A stretch of 62,362 nt of DNA, the filler included, from Stramenopiles sp. TOSAG23-6 (Eukaryota), in the NCBI GenBank assembly GCA_900128565.1. It is 12 parts of 12 records of this genome, joined end to end, with 100 filler letters (N's around TTAATTAATTAA, not from the genome) between each part and the next. Parts side by side here need not be neighbours in the genome. Positions count along the whole stretch, not along the records: positions 1 to 5,138 come from LT636970.1; 11 more parts are not named here. One strand, 5' to 3'. Each line of letters starts with the position of its first letter. Position 1 is the first letter of the stretch. Position numbers and translations under genes: made by a program. The notes beneath the pieces are model-generated. The model worked only from the letters and a program-made list of their open reading frames with translations. It did no database searches and had not been told where the DNA came from. Below are positions 1 through 62,305 of the stretch, one piece after another.

Positions 1-17
1 AAAAAAAAAACATACAA

Positions 18-1770
18 GGCAGTGTCCAGCTGTACATGTACGGCATTTACTGCTGCAGTATAACCATGTAGGTAGCGTCTACCCTTAAAACGGATAATAT
101 CATTCATATTGGGAAAATATGTCTAAATTGAATTCAGATTAGTAATAAAATTATGTATAAAAAAAAATCCTAATTCAAACTTAGAAACTTACCCCATGTT
201 CATTTAAAACGTTCGCCATGTTTGTAAAAACACCAAAGTACTTGAAAAATGACTTTTTCGAAGTACGGTGTTGGAGAGCCTGTCTCTTCACATCCTTCCG
301 ATCATTTTCCAAGGCACGACGAATATCACTATCTGGATTTGATAGTGCTTGTAACGCTATTTTGCTGTTGTTACAAAACGTACTTCTGAAGTCCTCCAAA
401 CTAATGTATTGTGAAAATTAATTAATTAAAAAAACGAAATTTTCGTTAGGTACGAATTTTACTATAAAAAAATTATTAAAAAAAAAACTTGATTTTTTTT
501 TTAAATTAAAAAAAAAAGTTGAAAAATAAAAAAAAACTTACTGATAAACAAATACGACTTGATCAAAATCTAAGAGTAGGTCACTGCCGTCTGGAGATGG
601 TACATAGAGTATGACTCCTTTAGAGCAGTCCATGATATCATCCATGATGTTCGTATCATACACACTGATTACATGTAGCTTTAAAAAATAGAAAAAAATA
701 TAAAAATTAGAATTAGGTATAAAAAATAAAAAAAAAAGTTATTTGAAAGTTGTGATAAAACTTACTTCATTAGGTGTTACACCCGTATCAGCTAGTATTC
801 TATCACCAGACAATTCGGGGCAACTACTGAAAGCTATCGTCTTTTTCCCGCGTGACGTTTCCTGGTCTCCGTCCCTCTCCACTAGCACTCTTTTATACTT
901 GGCGCTTTTTATCAAAAAATTTTTTTTTTCCTTGGACATCCTATCGAGATTTTTTTTTTGGTCAAAAGCGGGGAGTTCGTTATACTCTATCGTCTGTTCA
1001 GGTATATTTTTAACCCTAACCCTAACCCTGAAATGTGAGTTTTTTAAAATTATTTCTGTATTTAGTTAGGAAAAGAGTCACTATAACCAAAAGAAANAAA
1101 AATCAAAAAAAAAATCAAAAAAAAAAAAAAGTTAAACATTTTTTTTTGGTTAGGTACAAATTTTACTATAAAAAAATAAAAAAAAAATGAAACGTACTTT
1201 TTTTCTAACGTAGTTTTTGCAGTACTATTTTCGAATATAGAGTTGGTGTTGGACACCAATTTCTCTAATTCTACTTTGGATATTTCTCCGTTTAGTACTT
1301 TTTTGACGTGTTGATCTTCTCCACCTTTTTTGGTTTTTTTGGCGCGAGCCCGTTGTCGCGTTCTTTTTCTGTTTACTTCCTTCCTATTCTCTTTTTTTTC
1401 TTTTTTTCTTTTCCTTTTTCTTTTTCTTTTAATTGGCCACTTTTTTTTTTCAATTGAGCTGCGCCAATTTTCCGCAACCGAGACAGCCTCTGTGGCTGCT
1501 GTTTTGGCTTTTCCTAGAGCTATAGAATAGTCAGGATGACTTGAGTGTAAAGTCGAGCATGTGAGGCACATGCTTGACTCTACCCTCAAGTCATCTAGAC
1601 AATCTATTATCCAGGATTCATTTTCGCCCACAGCTTGGACTCTAACCGCGTCGGTTTTTAACACTTTTGTGCAATTCTGCAACTGAAAAAAATCGTTGCA
1701 GAATACACCATATTTTGCGGATCCAGCTGCATTCCAACAGCATGGACATGGAAGCGAGGAGACATTCATT
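18..1770 (-). CDS. Multi-exon hypothetical protein, 3' end missing; Cys/His-rich N-terminus and Lys/Arg-rich segment
   Basis: ORF pieces 1062-1859, 739-939 and 181-399 are separated by AT-rich introns with GT donors and CCTAAC branch motifs; exon limits are approximate. Confidence 0.4.
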
Positions 1771-1955
1771 TTATAATTATTAATAAGTGGTAGAGTTGTT
1801 GGAGAGAGAAAGAGAGAGAGAGAGAGAGGAGCATACCCATCAAACTTCGCGTTTGCCAATTTTGAAATTAACGGTCCAATTTANTNAAATAACTGCCATC
1901 GAATTTATCGAATAATTTTTGTTAGAGCTGCTCCTCCTCCTCACAAACAACAAAA

Positions 1956-2170
1956 TCACGCACACACCTAGTCGAGTAATGGACCACCTCGGTGGCATTC
2001 CATGAGCTCGCCGCAGAATTTCTGTGGGACTCTTCGGAGTCCGTGCTGTGCGTGATTCGCTGTGTGGTCACACACACACCTAGTCGAGTAATGGACCACC
2101 TCGGTGGCATTCCATGAGCTCGCCACAGAATTTCTGTGGGACTCTTCGGAGTCCGTGCTGTGTGTGACTC
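1956..2170. repeat. Two-copy ~112-bp tandem repeat; each unit folds into a multi-stem structure (candidate structured ncRNA or MITE interior)
   Basis: Copies are offset by 112 nt. Hairpins CCAC-CTCG-GTGG, CCRCAGAA-T-TTCTGTGG and GGACTC-TTCG-GAGTCC; closing stems covary. An 11-bp inverted repeat (AGCTGCTCCTC 1926-1936 / GAGGAGCAGCT 2185-2195) flanks the array. Confidence 0.85.
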
Positions 2171-2289
2171 ACAGTGCGTTTTTTGAGGAGCAGCTTCTTC
2201 CAAGGGTGCTATTTCCCTAGAACATCGAACGTAAACATGAAAACACAATTGTCAAATGTTCCTATTTTAATTGCACATCCGATAATTTA

Positions 2290-3924
2290 TTGTGTTTATA
2301 CAATGTGAAACGAAAACAAGGTGGAAAACATGTAGAGCTTCAAGGACATCGTGCTGGCGTTCGAGCTATTGCTCTTAGTCGAGACAACAGTATGGTTATG
2401 ATGCCTTCGAAACAAACGACAAAAATTTGGCGCATTCGCTATGGTGGAACAGGAGAAGACTTGAATCTTCAATGTATTTGTACATTCGATTCAGGTTATG
2501 GCATTTGTCGTTCCTTTGTACAGGGTGATCAACATGCGGTTGTAGGTACAAAGGAGGGAGAATTGAAGTTGTTTTCTTTGGGATCTGGGGACTGTATTTT
2601 CTCAACTGATGCTCATGAAGGATCAATTTGGTCGTTAGCGATGAGACCTGATAAAACTGGGTTTGCTACTGGAAGTGCTGATAAGACTGTTAAATTTTGG
2701 GAATTTGACGTTGATGATGATGAAAATTTAACAATTGTTCATACTCGAACATTAAAAATGACAGATGAAGTCATGTGCTTAAAATATTCGCATGCAAAAG
2801 AGGCGGAAAAATTATTGATAGCAATTGCTCTTTTAGATTGTACTGTCAAAGTTTTCTATGAAGATACTCTAAAATTCTCTCTTTCTCTGTATGGTCATAA
2901 ACTTCCCGTTATGTCTCTTGATATCTCATCTGATGATACAGTTATTGCCACTGCATCTGCAGACAAAAATGTAAAACTTTGGGGATTAGATTTTGGTGAT
3001 TGTCACAAATCTATTTTTGCTCATTCCGATTCCGTAATGTCGGTTTCTTTTGTTAGAGGTACACATTTCTTCTTCACTACTGGCAAGGATGGGATTGTAA
3101 AGTATTGGGATGGGGATACATACAATCTTATACTCGAAATGAAAGGACATACAGAGTCGGCTTGGTGTAGTGTTGTCAGTCAAGATGGAGATTTTTGTTT
3201 AACAGGGTCAGAAGATAAGTCAATTCGTTGTTGGGAACGATCAAAAGATCAAGTTTTCTTAGAAGAAGAGGAAGAACTTCGCATGGAAGAAGTTTTTGAA
3301 GCTGAAATGGATGACAATACGCGTAATCCAGAAGAACTTGCAGGTGTTGCAGGTACTGCTGAAGCCAGTGAGAGTGCAGCGGCGGGTGTCAAAAGCAAAG
3401 AATCACTCAAGGCTACCGAGAGAATTATGGAAGCTCTTGAATTAGCAGACGCAGAAAAGCTGCGACTGAAAGACTCTCCTCAAAGTTCTGCGAATCCTCT
3501 TATGCTTGGTATGTCTCCTGAAGTGTATGTTATGCGTTCATTGAGAGAAGTTAAATCACAGGATTTGGAACAAGCTCTATTAGTTATGCCAGTGTTTACA
3601 GTACAAAATCTCTTTCTTTACCTTGCAGAGTTTGCACGTCTGGGGCTACATCCCGAACTGACGACTCGTTGTATATGTTTTTTACTAACAGTTCATCATA
3701 ATTCAATCGTTGCAAATCGATCAATGTTAAATGTATTGCGCGATATGAATATTTACTTGAAAACATCTTTGCAGTCTCATAAAGATTCTATTGGTTTTAA
3801 TATTGCTGGATTGAAATTATTGAGACGTAGATTACAAGATAGTGGACGATGTATTCCTGATAAGAAGAGGGCACTAGAAGAAAATTGTCATGGGAAGTCT
3901 CAGATAAAGAGACAGAAATCTTGA
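2290..3924 (+). CDS. WDR3: WD40-repeat U3 snoRNP protein WDR3/Utp12 (Dip2), C-terminal portion only
   Basis: WD40 repeats with the WDR3-typical motifs LSLYGHKLPV and WGLDFGDCHKS, then a Utp12-type C-terminal domain; no N-terminal half upstream. Confidence 0.88.
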   Translation: MCLYNVKRKQGGKHVELQGHRAGVRAIALSRDNSMVMMPSKQTTKIWRIRYGGTGEDLNLQCICTFDSGYGICRSFVQGDQHAVVGTKEGELKLFSLGSGDCIFSTDAHEGSIWSLAMRPDKTGFATGSADKTVKFWEFDVDDDENLTIVHTRTLKMTDEVMCLKYSHAKEAEKLLIAIALLDCTVKVFYEDTLKFSLSLYGHKLPVMSLDISSDDTVIATASADKNVKLWGLDFGDCHKSIFAHSDSVMSVSFVRGTHFFFTTGKDGIVKYWDGDTYNLILEMKGHTESAWCSVVSQDGDFCLTGSEDKSIRCWERSKDQVFLEEEEELRMEEVFEAEMDDNTRNPEELAGVAGTAEASESAAAGVKSKESLKATERIMEALELADAEKLRLKDSPQSSANPLMLGMSPEVYVMRSLREVKSQDLEQALLVMPVFTVQNLFLYLAEFARLGLHPELTTRCICFLLTVHHNSIVANRSMLNVLRDMNIYLKTSLQSHKDSIGFNIAGLKLLRRRLQDSGRCIPDKKRALEENCHGKSQIKRQKS

Positions 3925-4024
3925 TTGATTGAGTCGTGTCACGTGTGGATTATTATTATAGTATACATATATAGAATTATAGAATTTGTTTGAAATATAA
4001 ATAGCATAGACTATATGAATCTGT

Positions 4025-4657
4025 TTAATTGTAGTGTTTCAAACCTTTGTTTTTTATATTCCCTGATTTCTTGTTTTTCTTGTTTTTCATCTTGTTTTGA
4101 GAATGAGGCGGGGCACAAATATCCGAAGATTTGTTTGTAGCAGAGTTTTCTGAATCTGTGCTCTCATTTGTGTAATGTCTGCCGCTAATATTTATTCCAT
4201 GAGAAGACGACCTAGTGACGCGTAATCCATGTTTCCCCTCTTTCTGTTGTTTGTCCATTAGATGATGGAGTGAAGTCTTTTCATTTAGTCTAGGCATAAG
4301 AACAGAGTCCGGTTTATGATTTGCTTCTGGGACTTCTGAGCTGTAACTCCCAACTGAAGTTTCATTTGCCGATTCGCCAACATATGTTTTTTGTTCATCT
4401 GTTTGCTTTTTTCTATTTTTAATTCTTTTAGATGAAGAATCTACATCACTATCAGCTGATTTTACATTGCTATAACCATCAGCAAAAGTATTTTTGTGTT
4501 CTTTTTCATGCACATATTTAGTTTTGTCTTTCAAATCTACCATCTCTTTCCCTTCAAGTGCTTTTTTCTTATCTTTCTTAACATCATCATCTTCATCATC
4601 ACAAATGTATCCCCCGCATTCGTAACTGCCGCATGGATCAGGGAAGATATTTCCCAT
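4025..4657 (-). CDS. Hypothetical hydrophilic protein with possible N-myristoylation/palmitoylation start (MGNIFPDPC)
   Basis: Single ORF, first ATG at 4657; no recognisable domain. Confidence 0.55.
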   Translation of the reverse strand: MGNIFPDPCGSYECGGYICDDEDDDVKKDKKKALEGKEMVDLKDKTKYVHEKEHKNTFADGYSNVKSADSDVDSSSKRIKNRKKQTDEQKTYVGESANETSVGSYSSEVPEANHKPDSVLMPRLNEKTSLHHLMDKQQKEGKHGLRVTRSSSHGINISGRHYTNESTDSENSATNKSSDICAPPHSQNKMKNKKNKKSGNIKNKGLKHYN

Positions 4658-5138
4658 TGTACTTTGAAAGTACGCAGGAGTGAATAAAATGGATTTTTTA
4701 GATTCGGAGTGAAAAGTTTTACACATTCCCAAAATTTTTGTAACGGATAGTAAAACACGGCGCAAACCTGTCTTGTAGTTTTAAAATCAACCGCGATATC
4801 GATCATCGGATGACACGGATGACATCGATGATTCAATGATTGTTGTTCATACTGTTTAATTGTTTCTTTTCAACAAACTTATTTTTCCAGTATATATAGG
4901 CTGGTTATACCTCATTCACTTCTCTTGGTTAGAAACGGTTAAAAGTGTTACAGCCAAACTCAAACACGCCCAAACACTCAACAATGGTGACAGACACATT
5001 ATCATCGAGCGGCTCCCAAACTGAACATGCGATAGTTTCACACGACGTAGCTTCTGTGGTTCTAGACTCATGGAATCAACGTGCTGGCTGTGACACTGGA
5101 GAAGATGATTGTCAAGCCTCTGGGAAGAAAATCTTCAC

Positions 5139-20920: not shown

Positions 20921-21653
20921 ATCCCTGTCTTACATGTATTTCGGAAAAATATTTCAAAAAAAAAATCGTTAGGTACAAATTTTCGTACGAAAAAAAAATT
21001 CGAAATTGAAAAAAAATAAAACGTACATGTATTGGTGCTTTTTGTTTCACTTTGCAAATAACACCTTGGGTTGAGCATGCTCGACCTTGAATTTGTGTAC
21101 ACATGAAAGCACCTAAATTATAATGAACACAAAAATCCCAAATTGCTTTGACGTGTGCTTCACCAGCATAGAGATGAAGTGTTCCCATATTCCCCCCCTG
21201 GTTTTGATCTTTTATTGGTAGTTTAAGCAATAGTTTACAATCTACATGTTGACACATATGGTGTAAAATTTGCTCACACAAATTCAAAGCTAATTGGTGT
21301 CCAGCACAGAATGACTGTACAACTCCAGGCGTTTCGTCTCCTGTCCAAACACGAACACTTGCGTTTAGATCTTTAATTGGTATAGTTCTTTCAGCACGGC
21401 AACGCAAGTTGGTATTTTCCGTACACATTTTATGTAATATCATATCACAATACTCATAGGATAGTTCATTTTTCGAACAAAAGTTACGTACAGTTTTAAC
21501 TGGTGGTTGGCCTTTAAACACTTGCACAGTTCCAATCACGACATTATCTTCACCCCTGATGGGTATATGCACTAATAAATTCGGATCATTAAGAATAGCG
21601 GTAGCGTGGCGAATAGCTATGAGAAAAAATACCCCATAAAAGTGAGGAAACAT
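20921..21653 (-). CDS. Secreted protein with repeated ~55-aa Cys-containing modules; GT-AT intron 20934-21026; truncated
   Basis: Signal-like N-terminus and three FC..(x8)C..I...(M)C modules. Confidence 0.65.
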
Positions 21654-36608: not shown

Positions 36609-39600
36609 ATCGGCATGAAAGAACATTACATCTAATTGAAACAGAAGTTGAAAAACCAATAGCTACAATTAAGAATTGCGTCAGTTGTCGTCAAAAAATC
36701 AAGAATGATAATACTCAGAGATTTGTATGTTTTCTGGATTAATTTTAAATTAATTTATTTTTTTTTTTCGTATGAACTTTTGTATGAATTTTTGTAGCTA
36801 ACAATTTTTTTTTGAAATATTTTCCCAAAATACAGGAGTGTGTTCTTAAAGATAATTCTACAATAAGTCCTAATGAGTACGAAACAATAGCAAATGATGG
36901 TATTTGCACTTTATATGATTTGCACGATTTATTAGGATCGGATGTATGTTTTATTTTTTTTTTCAACAAAAAAATCGAATTTTTATTTCGTACGAAATTT
37001 TGTACCTAACAATTTTCTTTTGAAATATTTTTCCAAAATATATGATCAAACAATTTTTAAACCTTTGTGGTTGGTTGATCCAAAATTATTTAAAATTAAG
37101 AAATGCGTCAGTTGTAGTCAAAAAATCAACAATGATAATACTCAGAGATATGTATGTTTTCTGGATTAATTTTAAATTTATTTATTTTGTTTTTTCGTAT
37201 GAACTTTTGTATGAATTTTTGTAGCTAACAATTTTTTTTTGAAATATTTTCCCAAAATACAGAAGTGTGTTCTTCAAGATAAATCTACACCAAGTTCTAA
37301 TGGGTACGAAAAAATAGAAAACCTCGACTGTAGAAACAAAAGAGAGAATGTTGAATGTAAATGCGTAAAGTCCAAAAAAAAACCAGTCAGCGAACCGGGA
37401 TGTTTTTGTGGTGGACATTTTTGTGAATCTCATAACTATTGTTATAATAATAATAAAAACGAAGCAACATGCAGCCCAACAATAGCTAGAGCTCATTTAC
37501 TATCAAAAAGAGATAAACCACGAATTGCTTTTGAAAAGGGATGCACATTGTATGACTTGTTCAACACTCATAAAATATTGAAACGAATTCCAGACTGTGC
37601 AAAGTGTATGTTTTTTTATATTTTACTGTTTTTAGTAGGAAATTTTGTACCTAACAACTTTTTTTTTCTACACGGTTTCATTAAAGTTACAAAATATAAC
37701 TTTTTATTTTATCTCTAACAAAACCAAATATAAAATTGTATGCCTAACAAAAATCAATACAAGACAAAAAAACAAAAAAAATATTTCTTCACTACACATG
37801 TAAACAATTTAAACTNAATAATGATAAATCACAANGCTATCAGTGTGAAACAATTTCGCAACCTGTGCGATTTGATTTTACCGATTGTATTCAGTCATTT
37901 ATAGATAAAGTACCGTCAAATTGTATGTATGTTTTATTTTTTTTTATACTATGAATTTCGAATTGTTTTTTATAGTACATTTTGTACCTAAACCTAAAAG
38001 ATTTTTTTTTTTTTGAAACTAAAAAAAAAATTTTGAAATATTTTTCCAAAATAAATGTGCGATACCCGTTTTTGTCGAAAAGGTAGCTATTGTTATGCCA
38101 AAGAAAAAGGAGGCAAACCGTCATGTACTCTTCAGGAACGCGAAATTACTGAAGGTTGTCCGGAAGTGAATCAATCATCATTTAATTTAAATAATTTAAC
38201 TGATGATGAGAAAGCACAAATGTATGTTTTATTTTTTTTTAACAAAAAAATCGAATTTATTTTCGTACGAAATTTCGTACCTAACAATTTTTTTAAGATT
38301 TTTTTTCGAAATATTTTTCCAAAATACATGGAAGAAAAAATTAAGGAAAAAAAGCTTTCTTTCGAGTGTTTATGTGATGAAAAGGTGTGCAAAGTGAACC
38401 AACAAAATTGTTTTCATAGAAAAGTCTTAGGGTTAGGGTCAAAAAGAGCCTGTAGTTGCCCATATTCCAAAGTTTCAAAAGTACCATCGAACTGCTTCTG
38501 TGGTAAAGAGTACTGTGAAACAGAAAATTTTTGTTATATCGACGAAGAAGGAAATAATTCACCTACATGTATGTTTTTTTTCAAAATTGTTTTTTTTTTT
38601 CAATATCAAAATTGTTTTTTTTTTCAATTTCAAAACAAAATTTTTTTTTTGAAAATTTCGTACCTAACAATTTTTTTTAGATTTTTCTTGAAATATTTTT
38701 CCAAAATACATGCACACCCATGGCTCCAACAAAACAAATATGTGAAGCATCTGAAACAAACAAGATTTTATCCGATTGTATGTGTAATAATTCATTATGT
38801 AAGACAAATTTTTATTGTTATAAAGGCGAAAATGAAATAGAAAAATGTTTTCAAATAGAAAAAGAAGCTGAAAAATTGACACAAAAAGGAGAAATTCATT
38901 ATAGTGCAAAATTTGAGAGAGCGGATGAGCTTGACAATTTGTTAGATACATTGAAAACCAACGTAACAGAAGACACGTATGTTTTTTTTTGTTTTTTGTT
39001 TTTTTTCAAATTTGATTTTTTTTTTCGTACGAAATGTTGTACCTAACATTTTTTTTTTTTTTTTGAAATATTTTTCCAAAATACATAATTTACAAACATC
39101 TACTCAGCAAAGTGTTCAATGCCAATAAAGGTAGTGTTCCCCAAGGTAGTGTTCCCCAAGAAGCATCACTCATAAACTGGTTTGCAATAAATGAAAGTGG
39201 TACGAATGTAATCAATTTGGATCAAATGAGACGAGAATTAAAATGGTTAGATCAAAATGAAAAAAACGATGTTGACAATTTTGAAGCTCTTGAGGAAGAC
39301 TATGCAATAAGTCAAATTGATCAATATTTAGTTGATCGACTTCGTTTTAAAAAAAATGCTCCAATTAAAAAAAAGTCGAAACAAGTTGCTCCAATTAAAA
39401 AAAAGTCGAAACAAGTTGCTCCAATTAAAAAAAATTCGAATCAAGTTGCTCCAATTATGTTACAATATTTAGATAATTATGATAATGAAAAAGATACTAG
39501 GATTGCGGAAACTAATAAACAATTTGAAAAAGTAAAAAATGATGTCACACAAGAACTTTTAGAGTCAGATGAAAATGTGAAACATTTAGAAAAACAATTC

Positions 39601-42536: not shown

Positions 42537-43673
42537 ATGTGCATGTCACACACTGTACTATTTTTCTTTCTGTTTTTGTGTAGCATTTTGAACCAAATTC
42601 ATGCTCCTGCTGCTGCAAAACTTAGAAAATGTACAAAACCTATATGTACTCCTCGGGACATTATCGATGATTGGTTAGACTCTGATTTTTCTAGATATTG
42701 GACCACGTGGAGACCTCTAAAGTCATTGCAGTACTATACCACGAAAGACCAAGCTAATAAAGACTTTGTGTTTCGATGTGTCTATTACAACGGAATGGAT
42801 CTTCAATATGCAAGTGAAGAGTTAAAAGATGATGTTTTTTTAGTTTTGAATGCAGTGTACTCAAATGGTATGAGTTTGCAATTCGCGAGTGAACGGCTGC
42901 GAGCTGATGCCAACGTTGTTAAATTTGCAATTGAATCGAATCCTTTTGCAATTCAATTTGCTAGTAAGTACTTGAGAAATCATCGAGAGCTTGGAGGTGC
43001 CGCAGTTAGGTATAACCCAATGGCACTACAATTTTATAGTAGAAAAGATTCAGAGACCGTAAAAAAGGCTGTTGAAGAAAATCTTCTTTCCATCCAGTTT
43101 TCAGAAAAAGCAACATATATACTTCGTACACGTGTATACCTACAATTATTGAGACCAGCGCTTCGTACTGAACATTTGTTGAAATTGTTTGGGCAGATAA
43201 AACAACGCTTAAGGAGTCGCATAGAGTACAGAGTGGATCAACTAAAAAAACTAAAAAAACTAAAAAAACTAAAAAAAATGAAAAAAATGGAAATTGGCTT
43301 CTTTTACTTTTGGACCTTTTGGACATTTTGGGATATTCTCTGGACTATTAAAAAATCAAGTCTTGAGCTACTCCGCACAAGAGACACACGCATTAGATCA
43401 CTTTCTCAAAGAAATGTGTTTCAATTAATCAATTCTTTTGTAGAAGATCCTATTGAAATTTTCCATAATATTAACAATTTATTCCAAATTTTAGGTTTGG
43501 AAGATCCTAGAAAAAAAACGGAAAAAGGAAATCTTCAATATATTAAAAAATGGTTAGGGTTAGGGTTTAGCTCAGAAAATCATTATTATGGAAAAGCTAC
43601 TACAGTACACAATCAAAATGAGATGAGAATAACTCGTGTAGGGGATATTTTTGAAGATTTTTCTACATATTAG
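42537..43673 (+). CDS. DUF4116-repeat protein with signal-like N-terminus
   Basis: Repeats NGMDLQYASEELKDD, NGMSLQFASERLRAD, NPFAIQFASKYLRN. Confidence 0.8.
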   Translation: MCMSHTVLFFFLFLCSILNQIHAPAAAKLRKCTKPICTPRDIIDDWLDSDFSRYWTTWRPLKSLQYYTTKDQANKDFVFRCVYYNGMDLQYASEELKDDVFLVLNAVYSNGMSLQFASERLRADANVVKFAIESNPFAIQFASKYLRNHRELGGAAVRYNPMALQFYSRKDSETVKKAVEENLLSIQFSEKATYILRTRVYLQLLRPALRTEHLLKLFGQIKQRLRSRIEYRVDQLKKLKKLKKLKKMKKMEIGFFYFWTFWTFWDILWTIKKSSLELLRTRDTRIRSLSQRNVFQLINSFVEDPIEIFHNINNLFQILGLEDPRKKTEKGNLQYIKKWLGLGFSSENHYYGKATTVHNQNEMRITRVGDIFEDFSTY

Positions 43674-47589: not shown

Positions 47590-49176
47590 ATGTCATCACT
47601 TAACTTAAAACTTGAAAAATCAATGTGATTTCCAGTGGTACAGAGTATTTCAAGGACTGCATCATTTGCGGGAGTGTTTAACGCTGTGCATACAGTATTG
47701 TATACCATTTTTATTGCCGCTTTGTTTGGATTTATTTTTATATCTGGTTTATCAATGTTTGAAAAAGATTCAGTTGATTTTATCGAGAGATTTGAACTTT
47801 TCTTTTTCCCTGCTAAAACTGGAAGTACTGACAATTTGTCTAGACTACTTACTCTACTATTGGATACATCATTGCTACTATTATTAGATGCATCATTTTT
47901 CGTTTTACTAGTAATATTTTTGGTTTTACTATTGGCAATGTTTTTGGTTTTACTAATATTTTTAGTTTTACTATTCGTTTTATTACTTTTGGTAATATTC
48001 ATTGATGTTGTATTACCCCCGACATGTATTTTGGAAAAATATTTCCCAAAAAAAATCGTTAGGTACAAAATTTCCTATAAAAAACAAATTCAATTTCAAA
48101 TTTAAAAAAAAAAAAAATGAAACATACATCAATCGGAACAATCCCCAAATTCGGGGGATTCTTGGCTTTTATACCTATTTCTGTACCAAACGAATTTTGT
48201 GTCGCTATTGGGTCCCTCTGCTGCTTTGAAGAAAATAATTGTAATGATTTATTTTCTCTTGTTTGTCGCTGAATTCTTCTTCTTCCTTCGTTGTTCATAT
48301 GCGTTGTATGTATTTTGGAAAAATATTTCAAAAAAAATTTTAGAAAAAATTGTTAGGTACAAAATTTCGTACGAAAAAAAATTTAGACTAAAAATTGAAA
48401 AAAAATAAAATATACATGCGTTGTATCAGGCGACATTCCAACAGTGCTCTTTTTAAAACTTTTTGTTGAATTTGCTGAAATGGTCACAGGCTTAGTAGAC
48501 ATCTTGTTTGTAGTATCCTTTTCTCGTGAATTTCGAATATTTTGAATCCCACCAATCTTTAAACTTTCTGAAGCCCAAGATTCATGTATTTTGGAAAAAT
48601 ATTTCAAAAAAAATCTAAAAAAATTTGTTACGTACAAAATTTCGTACGAAAAAAAAATCGATTTTTTTTTTTCGAAAAAAAAAAAAAAATAAAACATACA
48701 TACAATGTCGAAGGAGATGTTTGACTACTATTGAGGTTATTGAGGTGTTTTTCTACTATTTTTTCCCCTGATTTTGATTCACTATTTGTGTTTACACTAC
48801 ATTTAGACAGAGCATGTCTAAATCCATGTATTCTAGTGAGTTTTTCAATGAGTTTTGCTGTTCTATGTTTTGTGAAAATAGCTAGCAGGTGTTTTTCCAA
48901 TGGCTTTCCATCTTTTTGACAAAATAGACTATATAACTGACTAATACTAGAGACGTCGAGTAATTTATACAAGCATCTACTTTCATACAAATCTACATTG
49001 AGTACCATTCTTGCATTGATAGGCTTTATTGTTTCAATACCAAGTAATTCTGATCGAGAAGCGCGTACTAAAAAGCTTGAGTCCCAGAATTTCAGGATGG
49101 CATTTTTAAAGTCCTCATCTTTTCTTTTTTGTTTGTCTTCTGAGGAAGAAAAACCAATCCTCAAAGATTTCATCAT
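47590..49176 (-). CDS. Multi-exon hypothetical protein, 3' end missing; GT-AT introns 48024-48127, 48308-48415, 48584-48699
   Basis: Four exons join in frame. Confidence 0.65.
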
Positions 49177-53359: not shown

Positions 53360-54280
53360 TTACCAGTCACATCCTGGGCAAAATTGATTTCGCAAGGTAG
53401 AATCTTTAACAAAGTCGATAACGCTTAGTCTCTTCTTGTTTTGCGTTTTAAAAAACTGCCTCAATTGCAAAGCATTTTTCTTAAGCTTTTTATCTGTACC
53501 CAACCCGGATTTGCCCAATGCTTGAGCTTCTTGATTTTGAGCCGTGGCAATCAACACAATTACCTTGTTCCTACGCAACTCATCTGAGGCAAATTGAAGC
53601 GCAGATCCATTTTGATGCACCGCTTTGAGCACAACTTCTCGATTAGCTTGAATTTCTTCGGATCCATAGAATAACGCAGTGCCTTCGTGTGAAACAGCAG
53701 CACCCATTATCATCGGGTTATTTCTTAAACTTGAGGCGGCATAAGCAACAGCAAGTCCATTTTTTTTCACTGCAGCCAGCACAACTTCTGGATCTTCTGT
53801 CAATAGTGAAAACAGTAGTGCCTCTCCATCTTGATTAACTGCCAGGGTAACAACTTCATTGTCTTTCCGCATTTCCTTTGAAGCAAATTCAAGTGACATA
53901 CCATTTTGTTTTACCGCAGCCAATACAACACCTTTGTCACCCTGGAATTGTTTAGCAAATTCGAGCGTTAACCCATTCTTTGAAACAGCAGTCATTGCGA
54001 TATGTCGTTTACTCTGCATCGCAGGGGAAGCAAACTCCAAAGCTTCTGGGGAGTTGGAAACTGCAATACGAACAAATTCAGGATCATCTCTATACTCAGC
54101 CGGGGCCGAGCTTAGATTTTTCCCTGAACGTGAAACAAACGATAACCAGTTTGATCTCAAACTTCCTAGTTTCGGTTTTTTTTTCGGAATGGGCAGTTGG
54201 TCGATTTTCAGATCAGCTAATGCTGCATTTGTACACAATGCCAAATGAAGTAAAGCTATTTGTCGAATTATTGTGATCAT
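53360..54280 (-). CDS. DUF4116-repeat protein with signal-like N-terminus
   Basis: Multiple VVLAAVKQNG.SLEFAS.E.R.D repeats. Confidence 0.85.
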   Translation of the reverse strand: MITIIRQIALLHLALCTNAALADLKIDQLPIPKKKPKLGSLRSNWLSFVSRSGKNLSSAPAEYRDDPEFVRIAVSNSPEALEFASPAMQSKRHIAMTAVSKNGLTLEFAKQFQGDKGVVLAAVKQNGMSLEFASKEMRKDNEVVTLAVNQDGEALLFSLLTEDPEVVLAAVKKNGLAVAYAASSLRNNPMIMGAAVSHEGTALFYGSEEIQANREVVLKAVHQNGSALQFASDELRRNKVIVLIATAQNQEAQALGKSGLGTDKKLKKNALQLRQFFKTQNKKRLSVIDFVKDSTLRNQFCPGCDW

Positions 54281-61497: not shown

Positions 61498-62305
61498 ATG
61501 TCTTCCGAAACAAAAGAAGCACAAAAGGAATCCAGAGATGAATGGCCAACTTCTCCAGAGGATTATGAACTCACACGTAAGATTGGTGAAGGAGCATTTG
61601 CAAAGGTCTATGTCGCAAAGTGTCCAACAAAGAACATAGATGTGGCTATTAAAGTCATGGATTTGGAAAAAGTTACGTCAAACTTGGATCATCTTAGACA
61701 AGAAGTTACTACAATGAAATTATGTAGACACAAAAACGTTCTCCCTCTCTATACAAGCTTCAATGTCAAGCGTGAATTATGGTTAGTGATGCCTTATATG
61801 GATAAAGGTTCTCTTCTGGAAGCTATGCGACAATTAAAGAAACTTGGTCGGACTAGCGAGCTCGACGAAGATTGGATTGCTTTTATTCTGAGAGAAGTTT
61901 GTCATGGTCTAGACTATCTCCACTCATCAGGTTGGGTTCATCGAGATATCAAAGCAGGAAATATTTTGTTAAATTCCAGTGGTGATGTAGTCCTAAGTGA
62001 TTTTGGTGTAGCTGGTATTTTGACAAATCCTGACCCAATCAATCATGATAATAATCGAAACACTTTTGTTGGTACCCCATGTTTGTTTTATTAACCCTAA
62101 CCCTACTATCAAATGTATTTTTTTTTTTTTGGTTTTCGTACGAAATTTTGTACCTAACTTTTTTGATGATACAATTTCGTGTTTTTTCACAATATATGCT
62201 GGATGGCTCCGGAAGTAATGAAGCAAAGCGCGGGCTATACAGAAAAAGCAGATATTTGGTCCCTTGGCATTACTGCCTTGGAGTTGGCTAAATCATATGC
62301 ACCAT
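61498..62305 (+). CDS. STE20-family Ser/Thr kinase, OXSR1/SPAK (Fray)-like; GT-AT intron 62081-62197; 3' end missing
   Basis: [61 protein letters not shown]. Confidence 0.92.
62081..62197 (+). mobile_element. Intron-family copy, GT-AT, in the kinase activation segment
   Basis: Only removal of these 117 nt gives GTPCWMAPE; the first AG after the branch motif lies beyond APE. Confidence 0.92.

Follow-up and report, generated by a model that had tools for sequence, protein, structure and literature searches.

Vault, Y and adenovirus VA RNAs are small polymerase III RNAs with paired ends, and the hammerhead ribozyme core consists of CUGANGA and GAAA arranged around three helices. Catalogues contain little on structured RNAs from uncultured marine protists. 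According to the accessible parts of the respective reports, small-RNA-headed retrocopies are represented by the WEIRD RNA / MGL chimeras of Magnaporthe, in which the function of the RNA is unknown (PMC2104539), and by the U6 / LINE-1 chimeras (PMC11838501), while the non-LTR retrozymes, as far as the available text describes them, are tandem repeats carrying a ribozyme (PMC7229834). Here we describe a tandem element that represents a real, previously undescribed structured-RNA-like family of few copies in an uncultured protist, whose host is probably a MAST-3 stramenopile.

The window, i.e., the whole 62,362-nt stretch of DNA that was analyzed, is composed of ~5-kb contigs joined by N spacers, contig 1 occupying positions 1-5138. 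Its gene content is eukaryotic and includes WDR3/Utp12, Hsp90, kinesin and DUF4116; repeated DUF4116 domains are found in two open frames (42537-43673 and 53360-54280). The initial annotation had described two GC-rich units of ~100 nt in contig 1, and these were recovered as a direct repeat of 109 nt (1956-2064 / 2068-2176) with 94% identity and a spacing of 112, the element having a GC content of 55% against 34-39% in the surrounding DNA. The repeats differ at 9 positions per 112 nt, six of which fall inside the 104-nt units. On the plus strand, the dimer consists of two 104-nt units with a period of 112, and its features are as follows.

1926-1936 (+): left arm of the 11-bp inverted repeat, forming the outer stem (pair probabilities 0.72-1.0)
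1937-1953 (+): C/A-rich linker, unpaired in the predicted fold
1954-2057 (+): unit 1, a four-way junction in the predicted fold (z -6.65)
1954-1967 / 2043-2057 (+): P1, closing stem of unit 1, 14 pairs with a bulged C2046
1968-1972 (+): five-base single strand of the junction, predicted fold
1969-1982, also 2081-2094 (+): A-box-like word, by pattern match
1973-2010 (+): P2, long arm with two internal loops, predicted fold
1988-1991, copy 2 at 2100-2103 (+): CUCG tetraloop closed by C-G, cYNMGg type
2012-2026 (+): P3 hairpin, predicted fold
2017-2024, copy 2 at 2129-2136 (+): Sm-site-like word within P3, by loose pattern
2027-2042 (+): P4 hairpin, predicted fold
2033-2036, copy 2 at 2145-2148 (+): UUCG tetraloop closed by C-G
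2058-2065 (+): trailer of unit 1, of which 2058-2064 pairs with the unit 2 trailer at 2170-2176 (pair probabilities 0.82-0.89)
2066-2169 (+): unit 2, folding as unit 1 with six differences (z -6.07)
2170-2184 (+): trailer of unit 2 with a six-T run (2179-2184)
2185-2195 (+): right arm of the bracketing inverted repeat, a perfect 11-bp complement of 1926-1936
2243-2562 (+): decayed, 5'-truncated WDR3/Utp12 fragment, by metagenome comparison; context, not part of the unit

In the predicted fold, all 270 nt are enclosed by the bracketing repeat, and the unit trailers pair with one another. The inverted repeat around the array was reported correctly as 11 bp, and it is perfect; when the two 40-nt flanks, stretches chosen post hoc, were shuffled 5000 times, a bracketing repeat of 11 bp or longer arose 6 times. 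The unpaired, purine-rich junction and internal loops are identical between both units. The Sm-like word AATTTCTG, which the initial annotation had placed ahead of the C(UUCG)G hairpin, does exist at 2017-2024, although it lies inside the third hairpin and is mostly paired in the predicted fold; the UUCG hairpin itself was confirmed in both copies.

The element folds more stably than shuffled sequence. For 1926-2195 the folding z-score is -10.6 on the plus and -7.4 on the minus strand, and for single units -6.7 and -6.1 on the plus strand and -4.8 on the minus strand; none of 200 shuffles was as stable as the native sequence, for the dimer and the units alike. All six differences between the units fall at paired positions, and pairing is kept in every case, two pairs having changed on both sides and two on one side only. 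The closing stems (1954-1964 / 2047-2057 in unit 1, 2067-2076 / 2159-2168 in unit 2) were indeed altered on both strands, as originally claimed, with two double-changed pairs, and the G-U of one copy against A-U of the other was located at 2013 / 2125. We simulated this outcome, i.e., zero broken pairs together with two double changes, 100,000 times under each of 10 null settings (two ancestors combined with five mutation spectra, CpG-biased ones included), which gave P values from 3e-5 to 5e-3, under nulls that leave out hairpin-templated repair, another possible source of paired changes. The decay of CpG sites was rejected as the cause: one of the two double changes is hosted by CpG sites, yet the CpG-biased nulls still gave P <=0.005, and CpG is not depleted in the window (observed/expected 0.93). 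When the pairings were slid out of register, 20-49% were paired, compared with 100% at the true register. The standard covariation shuffle, which is powerless with two sequences, reached the observed value in 115 of 500 cases.

The apical loops point to the type of molecule involved. Both cCUCGg and cUUCGg match the YNMG tetraloop definition, as given in the accessible part of its source (PMC2346598). Among comparable loops of shuffled sequences, 224 of 16,888 (1.3%) were of the cYNMGg type, and the chance of both loops being so is ~0.003 after allowing for GNRA loops and either strand. Since both tetraloops are of the cYNMGg type, RNA is favoured over DNA.

To find related copies, 23 public sequencing runs were listed, of which 20 contain some part of 1400-4000 and 17 a small share or none. 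Four were compared over 1887-4300: X1, a small DNA data set that is possibly the source data of the window; X2, a seawater metagenome from another study; X3; and X6, a metatranscriptome from a third study and one of the 17 small-share runs. Unit-like sequence was present in three of the four (X1, X2 and X6) and was not found in X3, which has a depth of 2. X2, X3 and X6 do not span the window's own element flanks, and a hole there is no proof of an empty site. In X2, three contigs are unit-like. Record 8 spans 1992-2046 with 6 differences and continues into a 3' flank unlike the window, and record 17 of X6 covers 1965-2046 with 8 differences and 1 gap, sharing with it the 3' flank and the changes at 2014-2015; the two represent one locus with the core 1965-2046 and flanks unlike the window. 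At this locus, the changes at 2014-2015 convert the C-G and A-U pairs of P3 to U-G and G-U, which pair on the plus strand only, and from its loose ends P1 can be reassembled (12 pairs with a mismatch and a bulge), judged by eye and assuming unchanged letters at the core ends. The X6 contig comes from an RNA library that may contain DNA and measures 151 nt at a depth of 2.3. The remaining X2 contigs are degraded: record 9 is a 5'-truncated copy that begins at 1997 after unrelated DNA, and record 7 repeats in tandem every ~96 nt, lacks P3 and carries one change that breaks a P1 pair. Both share an end point and probably represent a single decayed array.

Judged from these sequences, the family occupies at least three loci, perhaps in different strains, and the X2/X6 and other loci may derive from another strain or species. 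The initial annotation had proposed a count of genomic copies: within the 62-kb window the unit's own model and a repeat comparison revealed none beyond the dimer, while relatives do occur in other seawater runs. The same window contains dispersed AT-rich repeats of ~100 nt with 78-96% identity (e.g., 38220-38330, 48583-48701 and 20930-21029), a degenerate tandem array at a contig end (40596-41654, period ~300 nt, 87-95% identity), and short telomere-like TAACCC runs at 1011-1028 and 62092-62103. As the latter run lies inside an intron-like repeat, these runs probably do not mark chromosome ends.

The recurrence of the unit bears directly on the possibility of a single-cell amplification or assembly artefact. 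The window is a chain of ~5-kb contigs with a perfect 934-nt fold-back, and contig 1 is probably mis-joined within WDR3, both of which speak for such an origin. However, the X1 contigs overlap in order from the left flank through the unit junction and core to the right flank, and the depth at the junction (68.8) is about half that of the shared core (135.7); relatives are found in a seawater metagenome and a metatranscriptome from two other studies; and fold-back errors yield no paired substitutions. The artefact reading is thus largely refuted for the unit, and we regard it as extremely improbable. Because two other loci occur in an independent seawater metagenome, the element is a small family and not an amplification artefact. 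The 934-nt self-inverted stretch itself, located at a contig end (51107-52040), is probably a fold-back chimera of genome amplification.

The X2/X6 locus also bears on whether the unit is a structured cis-element of a longer transcript, such as the UTR of a gene or retroelement, copied piecemeal. A parent transcript longer than the unit is possible, since the contig reaches past the core by 52 letters on the upstream and 18 on the downstream side in X6, and by 1.4 kb downstream in X2. Against this, the closing stem is apparently kept at every intact locus, which argues for a self-contained unit, and SECIS and the other cis-elements of Rfam gave no match. We consider a cis-element highly unlikely.

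Behind the element, X1 carries two sense-strand pieces of WDR3, 2243-2562 and 2887-2999; this run skips 2562-2887 and departs from the window after 2999. The first piece begins 58 bases beyond the T-run. Relative to the window, the WDR3 sequences of X2 and X3 carry one extra base near 2277-2281 and 33 extra bases near 2327-2333, and in X2, X3 and X6 the gene extends upstream of 2243 into DNA unlike the window. The closest protein to the WDR3 frame is 93% identical and carries a gene-model label that we read as MAST-3, a marine stramenopile, and full-length relatives have ~900 residues; the public gene model P0001 of the WDR3 region (2243-3924) starts inside the decayed fragment. The WDR3 sequence adjoining the element is not the working gene, and contig 1 of the window probably mis-joins a decayed fragment to the true gene. 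We considered the element as an insertion or intron in WDR3 and rejected this, because in X2, X3 and X6 different DNA carries the true gene on beyond 2243 in the upstream direction; excising the element restores no WDR3 frame either. On the other side, a minus-strand open frame (1062-1880) lies just left of the element, and none of the seven frames scanned in contig 1 reached the Pfam cut-off. Inside that frame, 1520-1610 forms a near-perfect 37-bp hairpin with 84% complementarity and z-scores of -9 on one strand and -10 on the other. This hairpin is MITE-like and has no second copy in the window.

The data allow the hairpins to be weighed as single-stranded DNA signals of a non-autonomous MITE- or Helitron-like DNA element, with arm-to-arm template repair producing the paired changes and with WDR3 pieces captured. 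In support of it, an 11-bp inverted repeat brackets the dimer, the DNA folding energies of the two strands are near-equal (-27 to -28 kcal/mol), the short arms are almost entirely Watson-Crick paired, gene fragments follow the element in X1, and both double changes sit in the single long stem, where hairpin repair would act. Each unit also contains the word CTAGT, which we take to resemble a Helitron 3' end. On the opposing side, the cYNMGg loops and G-U wobbles are marks of a plus-strand RNA, the X2/X6 homology crosses both sides of CTAGT without the bracketing repeat, and no other copy is present in the window. A target-site duplication was absent for both 1926-2195 and 1954-2184; an AGCT duplication flanks 1930-2191 only, and AGCT itself belongs to the inverted repeat. 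The suggestion of a hairpin MITE is accordingly weakened, as the other loci did not show the 11-bp repeat and 1926-2195 has no target-site duplication, and we judge a DNA element unlikely. The initial annotation had also inferred selection on an RNA or single-stranded DNA multi-way junction; such selection is supported, and RNA on the plus strand is favoured over single-stranded DNA, given the better folding of that strand, the wobbles restricted to it, the cYNMGg loops and the pairing flanks at the further locus.

None of the known RNA families examined accounts for the unit. The initial annotation had named an unknown ncRNA as one candidate, and no family was matched in any membership test run. 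A search of the whole window against Rfam 15 gave zero matches at the gathering score, and at E up to 10 only weak partial hits far below the cut-off. ARAGORN predicted no tRNA genes, and no B box was found in the element. Its A-box-like word exceeds by one base the tRNA consensus as we take it to be, and the pattern built on that consensus matches 13 times per 122,712 bases over both strands, two of the matches being in the element. BLAST gave no match to phages and only two 30-nt hits at E 1, i.e., at chance level, to plasmids. The element was not found by pattern scans of viral and metagenome contigs, where exact patterns miss diverged relatives and protist contigs are few; a looser viral pattern gave 12 loci, none of which was accepted by the unit model (best 4.6 bits). 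The motif is undescribed in the literature searched, supplements and most subscription papers being outside its scope, and a search for MAST-3 transposable elements, stramenopile U1 and protist four-way-junction ribozymes returned only two MAST-4 population studies. By-eye likenesses to U2, U4, 5S, 18S rRNA, xrRNA, the enterovirus cloverleaf, SECIS and twister-sister, compared as we know these structures, were rejected in the absence of Rfam support. As many families can be resembled in this way with no support from Rfam, by-eye RNA likenesses come cheaply.

In principle, the element could belong to an undescribed class of self-cleaving ribozymes, processing tandem transcripts to monomers within a retrozyme-like mobile element. 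Our analysis leaves this reading rather unlikely, and slightly less weight still is given to the more specific candidate, a four-way junction without a pseudoknot that would be the first of a new, retrozyme-like class in an uncultured MAST-3 organism. Consistent with a ribozyme, the units are tandem both in the window and in X2, a constant core is combined with a variable closing stem, and the purine-rich unpaired loops are held between units, an organization that recalls the retrozyme repeats described above. However, no Rfam ribozyme family was matched at the gathering score or at E up to 10. The hammerhead core was correctly reported as missing, CUGANGA occurring on neither strand of 1900-2250, and the core words of HDV, twister-sister and hairpin ribozymes, as we know these motifs, are absent or out of context; a twister-like word, from the motif as we know it, lies on the minus strand without its surrounding context. 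Pistol and hatchet ribozymes were sought by Rfam only and gave no match, permuted forms being able to escape Rfam. A search for loop-loop pairing returned nothing except the self-complementary CUAG and one 3-base match, and P3 is lost in the X2 tandem. The 112-nt period is also shorter than the 150-450 bp given for non-LTR retrozyme repeats in the accessible part of their description (PMC7229834).

A derivative or lineage-specific variant of an Sm-class snRNA, with the long stem-loop, Sm site and UUCG stem-loop that the U1 3' half possesses, was also weighed. In its 3' half, a natural U1 runs collinear with the element through stem-loop, Sm-like word and UUCG hairpin; the additional G-U pairs that weaken P3 at the X2/X6 locus would free the Sm-like word, and the upstream loose end of that locus contains, by eye, two short U1 words in U1 order. 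The comparison U1 (locus L013, 143.8 bits) was the one found among 13 scanned of 48 pattern loci; it lies at positions 1-158 on the minus strand in a genome labelled Gammaproteobacteria, so that a eukaryotic U1 snRNA there represents assembly contamination. Alignment of the element with this U1 did not exceed shuffle level (P 0.13-0.31 on the plus strand), and the U1 3'-half candidate was rejected despite its collinearity. Likewise, when the 3' half of one natural U1 was made into a model, its 10 hits in the window were weak and all lay off the element, and the Rfam models of U1, U2, U4, U5, U11 and U12 were unmatched at E up to 10. The closing stem draws on sequence past the UUCG hairpin, where U1 stops, and the Sm-like word is paired in the predicted fold, its loose pattern matching 67 times in the window. 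Compared with the Rfam consensus, 1926-2195 lacks both the splice-site-pairing 5' end of U1, as was first noted, and the U1-70K and U1A loops, while the X2/X6 contigs show only some of the 5' part of their locus. We therefore hold an snRNA origin to be improbable.

Together, these results lead us to favour, tentatively and at somewhat less than even confidence, a small structured RNA, so far undescribed, that spread its copies through RNA in a SINE-like manner. The unit would be a copy of a small non-coding RNA encoded on the plus strand of a MAST-3 stramenopile. The ends of this RNA would pair as a long closing stem, the sequence of which is free to drift as long as pairing holds, while the four-way junction, where three arms join, would keep its sequence, as might be expected of a core that binds a protein or adopts a tertiary fold. 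The X2/X6 locus is the likeliest working gene and putative parent, the window dimer and the decayed X2 tandem being secondary copies. The dispersed copies, some of them 5'-truncated (X2 records 7, 8 and 9, X6 record 17), are a trait of SINEs and other retrocopies, here in few copies and possibly from other strains. We infer that a host reverse transcriptase copied the RNA in the SINE style and that, at the window locus, pieces of the WDR3 message were copied together with it; none of the 30 frames scanned contained a reverse transcriptase domain, no poly(A) tail was found at the element, and the far end of the possible chimera falls outside the window. The transcript would probably be of the polymerase III type and end in U's. 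The A-box-like word and the T-runs are weak sequence marks of this kind, and the run at 2179-2184 is a possible polymerase III stop; a run of at least four T follows three of the four unit ends seen, against a background of 31-34% of 33-nt windows (binomial P ~0.12, computed by hand).

A 104-nt motif with a defined fold is suited to quick in vitro testing, within days. If self-cleavage proves true, the unit would represent a new ribozyme class, and if it loads Sm proteins, it would bear on intron splicing in TOSAG23-6; a merely retrocopied small RNA would still constitute an undescribed ncRNA family, of modest interest.

Compared with known systems, the element resembles MITEs and non-autonomous Helitrons, as we know them, in its short inverted repeat, its hairpins and the gene fragments nearby, but the loci seen share no termini or target duplication, the copy number as seen is low and the loops are of the RNA type. 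With vault, Y and VA RNAs, again as we know them, it shares a length of ~100 nt, a terminal stem, an A-box-like word near the 5' end and a trailing T-run, and differs in lacking a B box and an Rfam match and in its inner fold. In the 3' domain of U1 (RF00003), stem-loop, Sm-like word and UUCG hairpin follow one another as they do here, and U1 also has a four-way junction, whereas the window copies lack the splice-site-pairing 5' end and the U1-70K/U1A loops, their Sm-like word is paired, their junction differs and no model matches. The crocodilian U1/U2-headed SINEs (SINEU), in the accessible part of their description, provide a precedent for an snRNA-derived mobile repeat (PMC4494074), although the unit shows no measurable U1 or U2 homology. 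As the available text on the non-LTR retrozymes of animals describes them, these are likewise short structured repeats, found from dimers upward, both tandem and dispersed, but they carry a type I hammerhead, measure 150-450 bp and have <45% GC, in contrast with the 112 bp, 55% GC and missing hammerhead core of the unit (PMC7229834). With respect to the WEIRD/MGL and U6/LINE-1 chimeras, as presented in the accessible parts of their reports, the element differs in that neither a LINE part nor a poly(A) tail nor long direct repeats were detected and in that its RNA copy is dimeric and enclosed by an inverted repeat; the likeness lies in the arrangement, a copy of a small ncRNA placed 5' of transcript pieces on the same strand, as at the present locus (PMC2104539, PMC11838501).
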